This document shows, one piece after another, positions 300 through 1,467 of a stretch of DNA of 64,000 nucleotides (its first letter is position 1; each line of letters starts with the position of its first letter). Source of the stretch: an uncultured Candidatus Rokubacteria bacterium. Lineage in GTDB: Bacteria > Methylomirabilota > Methylomirabilia > Rokubacteriales > DASRDR01. Where the stretch lies: the NCBI GenBank assembly GCA_963708025.1, contig CAVPSB010000013.1, positions 384,001-448,000 on the forward strand, given 5' to 3'. The position numbers were made by a program, and so were the translations under genes. The notes under the pieces are model-generated. The model ran no database searches. It was not told the DNA's origin and saw nothing but the letters and a program-made list of their open reading frames with translations.

Positions 300-303
300 C
301 TTG

Positions 304-309
304 TATATT
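304..309 (+). promoter_or_regulatory. -10 box (TATATT) of the IS110 circle-junction promoter
   Basis: Joined to the right end through the CT core it lies 17 nt downstream of TTGACA (1447-1452). Confidence 0.85.
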
Positions 310-314
310 GACTC

Positions 315-480
315 CGAGTCGGACCGCTCATGAGAGCGTGGTCCGTTGCCTTGGACGTGACAGATCGTTTCCCCCTGGGTCTGAAGAGGCCGTGGGTGAG
401 CGTGGGTCGTCACGTCCGATCCTTGACGAGCCCGAACAGTTGCCAGGGCCGCCAGAGCCCGCATCCTGCAAGGTCGGGCC
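315..480 (+). ncRNA. IS110 bridge RNA (5' hairpin, target-binding loop, donor-binding loop); ends approximate
   Basis: Stem 353-361/409-417 encloses gtttccccct (367-376) and gggtgag (394-400), matching the target; stem 430-435/474-479 encloses acagttgc (436-443) and tgcaag (467-472), matching the donor junction. Confidence 0.85.
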
Positions 481-499
481 AGAAAGGAGCCACCGCTCC

Positions 500-1450
500 A
501 TGAGTGAGGGTGCACGGTTCGTGGGCATCGATGTGGCCAAAGACCGCCTGGACGTCGCGGTCTGCCCGACGGACGAGCGCTGGACCGGAGGCAATGATCC
601 GGCCGGCATCGAGGCCCTGGGGGAGCAGTTGGTCCGGCTCGCCCCCCAGCTCGTCGTCCTGGAAGCCACGGGCGGCTTCGAAGTCCCGCTCGTCGGCGCC
701 TTGGTCGCCCGCGGGCTGCCCGTGGTGGTCGTGAACCCGCGCCAAGTCCGGGACTTCGCCAAGGCGCTCGGCCGTCTGGCCAAGACCGACCGCATCGATG
801 CCACCGTGCTGGCCCTGTTCGCCGAGCGGGTCCAGCCGGCGGTCCGGCCCCTGCCCGATGAGGCCACACGGGAGCTCCAGGCGTGGCTGGCGCGGCGACG
901 CCAATTGGTGGAGATGATCACGGCGGAAGAGAATCGCCGGCAGCAGGCCGCGGCCCCGATCCGGCGCCAGATCGAGGGCCACCTCCGGTGGCTGCGGCGC
1001 CAACTGGCCGAGCTCGAGCGGGACCTGACCGCCCGGGTGCGCCGCAGTCCGGTGTGGCGGGAGTCCGAGACCCTGCTGCGCAGTACCCCGGCGGTGGGCC
1101 CAGTCCTGGCGCGGACGCTGCTGGCTGACGTGCCGGAACTGGGCCGCTTGAACCGCAAGCAGATCGCCGCGTTGGTCGGCGTGGCGCCCTTCAATCGCGA
1201 CAGCGGCCCGCGCCAGGGCCACCGAAGCATCTGGGGCGGCCGCGCGCCGGTGCGCGGGGTGCTGTACATGGCGGCCCTCGTCGCCACTCGGTGCAATCCG
1301 GTCATCCGCGCCTTCTCCCAGCGACTGTTGGCCGCCGGCAAACCGTGGAAGGTGATGCTGACCGCGTGCATGCGCAAACTGCTGACGATCCTCAACGCGA
1401 TGATGAAGCATCGCACCGCCTGGAAACCGGCCCCTGAACTTGGGGCTTGA
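500..1450 (+). CDS. IS110 family transposase/recombinase (DEDD RuvC-like domain + Tnp20 domain), 316 aa
   Basis: GIDVAK, LEATGG, KTDRIDA and C-terminal PFNRDSG motifs; RBS agaaaggag at 481-489. Confidence 0.97.
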
Positions 1451-1452
1451 CA
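1447..1452 (+). promoter_or_regulatory. -35 box (TTGACA) at the IS110 right end
   Basis: Consensus TTGACA overlapping the transposase stop codon, 15 nt before the end of the CT core. Confidence 0.85.
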
Positions 1453-1467
1453 ACGGAGACAGTTGCT

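Follow-up and report, generated by a model that had tools for sequence, protein, structure and literature searches.

The 64,000-nucleotide (nt) stretch analysed here (positions 384,001 to 448,000 of the forward strand of contig CAVPSB010000013.1, assembly GCA_963708025.1, from an uncultured Candidatus Rokubacteria bacterium; hereafter "the window") carries at positions 300-1467 a gene for a 316-aa recombinase, preceded by a leader with two guide-bearing loops and flanked on both sides by the dinucleotide CT. This segment is very probably an intact insertion sequence (IS) of the IS110 group, with bridge-RNA-guided recombination as its mode of movement. Comparison of its flanks with an uninterrupted empty site defines the element as a body of 1164 bp (302-1465) with a CT core on each side (300-301 and 1466-1467); the left junction reads ggtctcccc-CT-tgtatatt and the right junction acagttg-CT-caccc (1459-1465, 1466-1467 and 1468-1472, respectively). 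The empty site lies 54 kb downstream, in the same orientation as the element, inside an intact three-hairpin element (~55290-55386) that resembles repetitive extragenic palindromes (REP-like). Where the empty site has a single CT core, the element has one at either side, and a second genomic copy shares the junctions. The left end is long (302-499, 198 nt) and the right end short (1451-1465, 15 nt), which is the layout of the IS110 group. The features of the locus are collected in Table 1.

A DNA search of the element's own genome, which covered 8.17 Mb on 49 contigs, located the second copy on the minus strand at C15:72468-73730 (G000:C15), within another copy of the same REP-like repeat and with the left flank TACCCCC-CT. 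Over 1166 bp the two copies differ at a single base (window position 868, ACA/ACG in T123), which is synonymous, and a protein search (E-value up to 1e-5) found only these two recombinase genes in the host genome. The 15-mer predicted by the guides as a target has 2 exact occurrences in the whole genome, 6 with at most one mismatch and 450 within three mismatches; 8 empty sites of the repeat type, again genome-wide, have at most one mismatch over the 12 variable positions.

Table 1. Features of the element, its leader RNA and its landing site (window positions)
Feature	Position	Strand	Basis
Left half of interrupted REP-like target: left hairpin and central-stem 5' arm GGGGTGAGGG	241..299	+	comparison with intact copy 55290-55386
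CT core dinucleotide, left copy	300..301	+	read in sequence; empty site has single CT
Left terminus TGTATATT, right-donor half-site	302..309	+	CTTGTA invariant in 61/61 aligned left ends
Predicted circle-junction -10, TATATT	304-309	+	sequence of joined ends
Bridge RNA 5' stem-loop	320..345	+	centroid fold of 312-499
Target-binding loop	351..419	+	fold, compensatory changes, covariation with flanks
Target-loop basal stem	351-366 with 405-419	+	fold, family alignment
Left target guide, TTTCCCC+CT	368-376	+	flank match, covariation
Target-loop distal hairpin	378-391	+	fold, family alignment
Right target guide, GGGTG+AG (5+2 nt)	394-400	+	flank match, covariation
Target-loop handshake guide	401-402	+	IS621 rule, column conservation
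Donor-binding loop	430..479	+	fold, compensatory changes, match to element ends
Donor-loop basal stem	430-434 with 475-479	+	fold, family alignment
Left donor guide, ACAGTTG+C	436-443	+	match to right end
Donor-loop distal hairpin	446-460	+	fold, family alignment
Right donor guide, UGCA+AG, wobble G468:T304	467-472	+	match to left end
Donor-loop handshake guide	473-474	+	IS621 rule, column conservation
Shine-Dalgarno-like AAAGGAG, 11 nt 5' of ATG (putative function)	482..488	+	read in sequence
Recombinase gene, 316 aa and stop	500..1450	+	open reading frame call (coding 500-1447), Pfam, IS621 alignment
Predicted circle-junction -35, TTGACA, overlaps stop codon	1447..1452	+	spacer 17 nt to 304-309
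Right terminus ACAGTTG, left-donor half-site	1459..1465	+	sequence, homologue right ends
CT core dinucleotide, right copy	1466..1467	+	read in sequence
Right half of interrupted REP-like target: CACCC (1468-1472), then right hairpin CCCTCTCCCC..GGGGGGAGGG	1468..1501	+	sequence
Unoccupied target GTTTCCCC-CT-CACCC, single CT	55341..55355	+	exact match to both target guides

The recombinase

The Pfam comparison assigned residues 8-149 of the product to DEDD_Tnp_IS110 (PF01548, E-value 5.6e-25), the N-terminal RuvC-like DEDD domain, and residues 191-273 to Transposase_20 (PF02371, E-value 3.2e-17), the C-terminal Tnp domain. The only relatives of solved structure are IS621 (8wt6, E-value 7.8e-39 over residues 5-304) and ISCro4 (9t56, E-value 3.5e-38). 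The composite active site of IS621 is described in its structural paper (PMC11208158) as D11, E60, D102, D105 and S241-G242, in a numbering that corresponds to the 328-residue PDB chain minus 2, as that chain has two extra N-terminal residues; the residues aligned to them here are D11, E55, D97, D100 and S235-G236. Judging by this alignment, all five IS621 catalytic residues are conserved, and an intact 316-aa recombinase, as originally proposed from the DNA sequence, is what the open reading frame at 500-1447 appears to encode.

The reading frame of the recombinase stays open upstream across the entire bridge-RNA region (308-1450, plus strand, with a TTG at 308, 380 aa), so that gene prediction may make the protein too long and mask the RNA. 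The homologous proteins begin at an ATG that matches position 500 and have a length of 316 aa.

Predicted structure of the leader RNA

In the leader, of about 170 nt, a 5' hairpin is followed by the loop that would bind the target and the loop that would bind the donor. The original prediction (a reading of the DNA sequence that preceded this analysis) had placed the hairpin at 320-345, which agrees with the centroid fold of 312-499, and its four guide strings were found by direct reading exactly where it had put them (gtttccccct at 367-376, gggtgag at 394-400, acagttgc at 436-443 and tgcaag at 467-472). The two internal loops in which they were said to lie are recovered both by the fold and by compensatory changes across the family.

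The family comparison drew on 80 loci, found by scanning a single genome for each species, in Nitrospirota, Methylomirabilota, Chloroflexota, Gemmatimonadota and other phyla; their encoded relatives are 55-65% identical. The leader alignment consists of 60 distinct left ends and that of the window (61 sequences) and is good from the target loop onward. Invariant or nearly so are the terminal CTTGTA, the AG-C 3' of the right target guide, most of CCCGAACAGTTGC and GCAAG. RNAalifold, applied to the full left ends, missed the basal stem of the donor loop and reported a helix of CTTGT (columns 1-5) with GCAAG, which we rejected, as it represents the complementarity of guide and donor and not an RNA helix; for these reasons a structure of 29 pairs, comprising the basal stem and the distal hairpin of both the target and the donor loop, was drawn by hand. 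Over the 61 sequences 85.1% of these pairs are formed, compared with 32-53% after displacement of the 3' partners by 1-3 columns; in 18 of the 29 pairs both members have changed, and the observed score was reached by none of 500 shuffles. The mean column identity is 0.54 and 0.42 in the target guides, which are variable, as opposed to 0.97 and 0.86 in the donor guides, which are conserved; the same contrast between the two loops is described for IS110 bridge RNAs in Durrant 2024 (PMC11208160). Together with the protein domains, the duplicated CT and the empty site, these stems and loops bear out the proposal of an IS621-like layout of target and donor loops with a CT core.

A scan of positions 1-1800 against Rfam 15 (E-value up to 1) gave no plus-strand match and no hit named as a bridge-RNA family, in a library whose inclusion of such a family was left unchecked, and a match to an internal ribosome entry site in the same scan was dismissed as spurious.

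Target guides and flanking DNA

In the window copy, 6 of 7 positions of the left target guide and 5 of 5 of the right target guide match the element's own flanks. The string gggtgag had been read as the reverse complement of CTcaccc on the right, as all five variable positions confirm. Its counterpart gtttccccct, claimed to match the left target plus CT, does so exactly at the empty site (55341-55350); with the element's own left flank (gtCtccccct, 292-301) the agreement is 9/10, and the one deviating position would form an rU:dG wobble.

Guides and flanks were compared across the family by locating left ends through CTTGTAT and right ends through each locus's own donor guide (at most one mismatch) followed by CT, downstream of the stop codon. 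From 81 loci (the window and the 80 relatives), 68 with both ends and an aligned leader were obtained, and 67 after exclusion of one locus (L095) whose assigned right end fell inside the leader; these correspond to 47 distinct guide pairs. The right target guide matches its own right flank at a mean of 4.49 of the 5 variable positions (permuted: 1.56) and perfectly in 34/47 pairs, while the left target guide matches its own left flank at a mean of 4.38 of the 7 variable positions (permuted: 2.59), or 4.89 against 3.32 if a register shift of one base is allowed. For neither guide was the observed value reached in any of 10,000 permutations. Covariation of guide and target across homologues, which the original prediction had named as its own check, is thus present in these 47 pairs. 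The targets of the homologues are unrelated in sequence (for instance CT-TACAA, CT-GAGCG, CT-TTTTT and CT-ACAGG), so that a single repeat family cannot account for the signal. Insertion of the window element in the opposite orientation was considered and rejected: the repeats carry CT-CACCC on the other strand too, but the left half there is mismatched at 4/7 positions (e.g. GGACACC), which indicates that the left guide sets the orientation. The sequence comparisons thus support the predicted target TTTCCCC-CT-CACCC and the predicted donor ACAGTTG-CT-TGTA.

Donor guides, predicted handshake positions and predicted junction promoter

The left donor guide ACAGTTGC matches ACAGTTG-C at the right end and the right donor guide UGCAAG matches CT-TGTA at the left end with one wobble. 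The claim that acagttgc matches the right end acagttgCT holds through acagttgC and fails at the final T of the core, while the G:T wobble claimed for the pairing of tgcaag with CTtgta is kept in 56/61 leaders. The donor is nearly constant across the family (ACAGTTG-CT-TGTAT), and where the donor guide varies (ACAGTCG, ACAGCTG, ACGGTTG, ACGGCTG) the right end shows the same change. The donor guide is matched at 7/7 positions in 46/47 pairs, 7 with variant donors among them, an agreement that is partly circular, since the right ends were located with the donor guide; the matches nonetheless fall behind TTGAC[AT], at a constant 17 nt downstream of the stop codon.

For IS621, the dinucleotide 3' of each core-pairing AG is reported to pair after strand exchange with the non-cognate position 7, and must not pair with the cognate one (PMC11208158). 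Here all 61 leaders have C401 and donor position 7 is G in 47/47 pairs; 90% of leaders have G473, and the target has C (42/47) or T (5/47) at position 7. Neither C401 nor G473 is able to pair with its cognate position 7. The putative handshake guides conform, by their sequence, to the IS621 rule.

Fusion of the right end with the left yields the sequence TTGACA-17-TATATT, and among 51 distinct junctions of the family the spacer is 17 nt in 43 and the -35 element TTGAC[AT] in 40. A promoter and terminator scan of the integrated element (100-1700) found no sigma-70-like promoter on either strand, and so gave no evidence of an antisense promoter, nor any of a terminator that would end the RNA. 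The predicted sigma-70 promoter is thus present only across the circle junction; an excision-dependent junction promoter has been reported for IS621 (PMC11208160, PMC11208158).

Distribution in public sequence data

The 90% cluster of the recombinase contains 6 member sequences, located on 4 contigs; the next protein clusters, both metagenomic, are 90% and 87% identical, followed by clusters of at most 78%, and the best DNA match in 40 related genomes is 71% identical. The subfamily has at least 8000 relatives at E-values up to 1e-30 (all 8000 scored candidates passed). The suggestion that the orthologue and its specificity may be new is accordingly tenable in the narrow sense of these nearest clusters and DNA match, not in the sense of a new class. 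Words of the element occur in 20 of the 24 public runs listed, from 17 studies (soil, bog, sediment). In one of these runs a soil-metagenome contig of 1224 nt (X3) contains the element with 6 differences, between other repeat flanks and with the left target CTTCCCC, and is a third insertion context. The one contig from an RNA library covers 234-613 with 5 substitutions and 7 gap positions and may derive from a relative or from DNA. The single joint observed, of 448 to 649 (one contig, side 21), was too weak to read. The contigs of four public runs give neither RNA ends nor strand information.

Proposed cycle and alternative explanations

By homology to IS621 we propose the following cycle. The element would excise as a circle, its right end joining its left end across a single CT, and the joining would create the sigma-70 promoter TTGACA (1447-1452), 17 nt, TATATT (304-309), from which the leader RNA of about 170 nt would be transcribed from near position 316, with the recombinase messenger RNA behind it. 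The leader would fold into the 5' hairpin and two stem-loops with internal loops, of which the first would pair with the target and the second with the circle junction. A tetramer of the 316-aa DEDD/Ser recombinase would then cut after CT and exchange strands, upon which handshake pairs could form between C401 and donor G7 and between G473 and target C7, and the element would end up inserted with CT on both sides. Its natural landing site would be the 3' arm of the central stem of the three-hairpin REP-like repeat. In this scheme transcription from the circle, binding of the RNA by the protein, the cleavage chemistry and present-day activity are extrapolated from IS621. The anatomy of the element, the two near-identical copies, the empty site, the catalytic residues and the family-wide covariation of the stems and of guides with flanks are direct observations.

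Several observations weigh against this interpretation. The RNA, the circle and any recombination event are predictions from the sequence, and the copy number in the genome is only two. Both occupied sites are imperfect with respect to the left guide (TCTCCCC with one difference, a wobble, and TACCCCC with two), while 2 perfect and 6 one-mismatch sites of the REP type are unoccupied. The fold of the single sequence is only mildly better than that of shuffled sequences (z -2.09; 3/200 shuffles as good). The right target guide scores at most 3/5 in 6/47 pairs, the signal of the left guide is moderate and involves register shifts, with 6/47 pairs at no more than 2/7, and the final core base T is left unmatched by the donor guide (C444), whose agreement with the right ends carries the circularity mentioned above. 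No circle junction was found in the contigs of the four public runs (contigs only), and the RNA-library contig spans the flank too and therefore does not show a discrete small RNA.

Some of these points would be expected if the copy were structurally intact and presently immobile, excision being rare or lost in this host and the element silent in the chromosome because its promoter exists only in the circle. The absence of a sigma-70-like promoter from the integrated form, the presence of only two copies beside 8 empty REP-type sites with at most one mismatch, the lack of a circle junction in the contigs of the four runs and the report that chromosomal IS621 loci show weak expression of the bridge RNA and are less efficient in excision than in insertion (PMC13626964) all agree with such a state. 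Nevertheless, a single synonymous base separates the two copies over 1166 bp, every catalytic residue is retained, a third insertion context exists in a metagenome, and weak expression in the integrated state is the norm of the family rather than a sign of decay; we consider immobility of this copy improbable. An even less likely explanation, to which we give hardly any credence, is that the leader is a mere 5' untranslated region or translational regulator, that its matches to the flanks stem from carried or copied pieces of the REP-like repeat and that the protein alone picks the site. The uninterrupted frame that runs from 308 across the leader and on into the gene would suit it, as would a target that is a G+C-rich repeat with similar strings in abundance (the 450 sites within three mismatches of the 15-mer). 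It is contradicted by the match of the same RNA columns to the unrelated flanks of homologues (CT-TACAA, CT-GAGCG, CT-TTTTT), unequalled in 10,000 permutations, by the stems around the guides, which stay paired through compensatory changes, and by the homologous proteins, which have 316 aa and begin at the ATG at 500. A mobile, bridge-RNA-guided IS110 element is therefore the reading that we retain.

If so, the element would be a compact two-part programmable recombinase (316 aa and a ~170-nt RNA) of a soil bacterium rich in G+C, with its target, donor, core, handshake positions and native promoter all legible from the sequence. Nature offers at least 47 "reprogrammings" of this scaffold as a guide to which of its positions are free, and an orthologue panel for bridge editing could reasonably include the element. 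The class has been in the literature since 2024, the subfamily is very large, and conceptually nothing is added beyond the publications of 2024-2026.

The REP-like landing site

The compound repeat at window 55290-55386 consists of the hairpins CCCTCTCCC..GGGAGAGGG, GGGGTGAGGG..CCCTCACCC and CCCTCTCCCC..GGGGAGAGGG and is scattered between genes throughout the genome. Folded as single-stranded DNA, the intact site forms three hairpins (-36.1 kcal/mol, z -4.91, 0/200 shuffles as good), and the CT core sits in the 3' arm of the central stem, with hairpins on both sides; at the occupied site of the window the left target 7-mer TCTCCCC is found at 293-299. Several relatives are likewise located in or beside palindromes. 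For the host genome, the repeat family amounts to a collection of landing pads, and the perfect site in direct orientation 54 kb away could allow an element-mediated deletion.

One further possibility, which we regard as doubtful, is that the element reads not only the sequence of its landing site but its shape too. The right target guide GGGUGAG is identical in sequence to the 5' arm of the central stem (GGGGTGAGGG), and the RNA could therefore invade by displacing the self-pairing of the repeat. By analogy with ISPpu10, for which this was reported in 2026, the flanking hairpins could serve as a second specificity gate; if true, such a gate would explain the disuse of perfect-match sites outside the repeat.

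A second and far more abundant G+C-rich palindromic repeat, GGCTCCCCCCTCCCCC..GGTGGGTGGGGGAGGGGGG, occurs at G000:C2:216080-216680, where it forms a run of six tandem units of ~100 bp, and on many other contigs; with 3 mismatches it is not a target of the element. On the minus strand of the window, two adjacent paralogous open reading frames (2535-3479 and 3610-4683; 314 and 357 aa) have very similar translations, and the short spacer between them contains a copy of the REP-like repeat.

A possible relationship to the sX15 and asX7 RNAs

Rfam family RF02234 (sX15, a small RNA of Xanthomonadaceae) matches the minus strand of window 338-482, i.e. the whole bridge-RNA region, with 22.9 bits, and minus-strand matches to the same model were found in 8/18 related loci (L024, L046, L049, L062, L070, L072, L075 and L100). 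All these matches (22.9-41.1 bits) are below the gathering score of 55. The sX15/asX7 locus of plasmid pXCV183 (L115:1860-2060, minus strand) is the leader of a truncated IS110-type open reading frame (MNGIGIDVCKAKL...) and contains the donor-guide motif CCCGAACAGTTGC. The 2011 report on these RNAs (PMC3300014) describes sX15 and asX7 of Xanthomonas as complementary transcripts with 10 homologues in Stenotrophomonas, and asX7 as detected on Northern blots. On the sequence evidence, what RF02234 models is apparently an IS110 bridge RNA in reverse complement, in which case asX7 would correspond to the 5' part of such an RNA. RF02234 itself is annotated as a small RNA and not as an RNA of IS110 elements, and its matches lie on the opposite strand; a search of the literature available here found no paper linking asX7, sX15 or RF02234 to bridge RNA. 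By analogy with this pair of complementary transcripts, a second possibility, independent of the shape recognition considered above and likewise doubtful, is that elements of the subfamily may be restrained by an antisense RNA against the bridge RNA.

Comparison with known systems

The closest well-described counterpart is IS621 of Escherichia coli (PDB 8wt6), with which the window element shares the order of domains, the DEDD and Ser catalytic residues and the CT core. The natural targets of IS621 are of the REP type, as are those of the window element. Further likenesses to IS621 as it is described in PMC11208160 and PMC11208158 are the bridge RNA encoded in the left end, the 5' hairpin, the variable target loop and conserved donor loop, the left guides that read the bottom strand and the right guides that read the top strand, the handshake positions directly 3' of the core-pairing AG, and the promoter that would be rebuilt at the circle junction. 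The window element differs from IS621 in that it is only distantly related in sequence (E-value 7.8e-39 over residues 5-304), in its donor (ACAGTTG-CT-TGTAT) and target, in its right target guide of 5+2 nt, in a donor guide that lacks pairing to the core T, in the conserved rG:dT wobble of the right donor guide (56/61 leaders), and in being so far a purely sequence-based description. ISCro4 (PDB 9t56), the second solved homologue, has a similar score (E-value 3.5e-38).

ISPpu10 and ISPpu9 of Pseudomonas putida are described as IS110 elements that insert, like the window element, into repeated extragenic palindromes (bioRxiv 10.64898/2026.03.19.712850, PMC12288879), and the account of ISPpu10 in the former places a G+C-rich stem-loop 5' of the guide-matched site. 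The site in the window likewise has hairpins, on both of its sides. The insertion point, however, lies inside a stem arm and not beside a stem-loop, and both the bacterium and the repeat are unrelated to those of the Pseudomonas elements. The elements of the IS1111 group with their seekRNA have the same type of DEDD transposase and the same RNA-guided choice of site (PMC11187229). According to a figure legend in Durrant 2024 (PMC11208160), the IS1111 group is marked by a short left end, a long right end and subterminal inverted repeats that are long, whereas the left end of 198 nt and the right end of 15 nt place the window element in the IS110 group.

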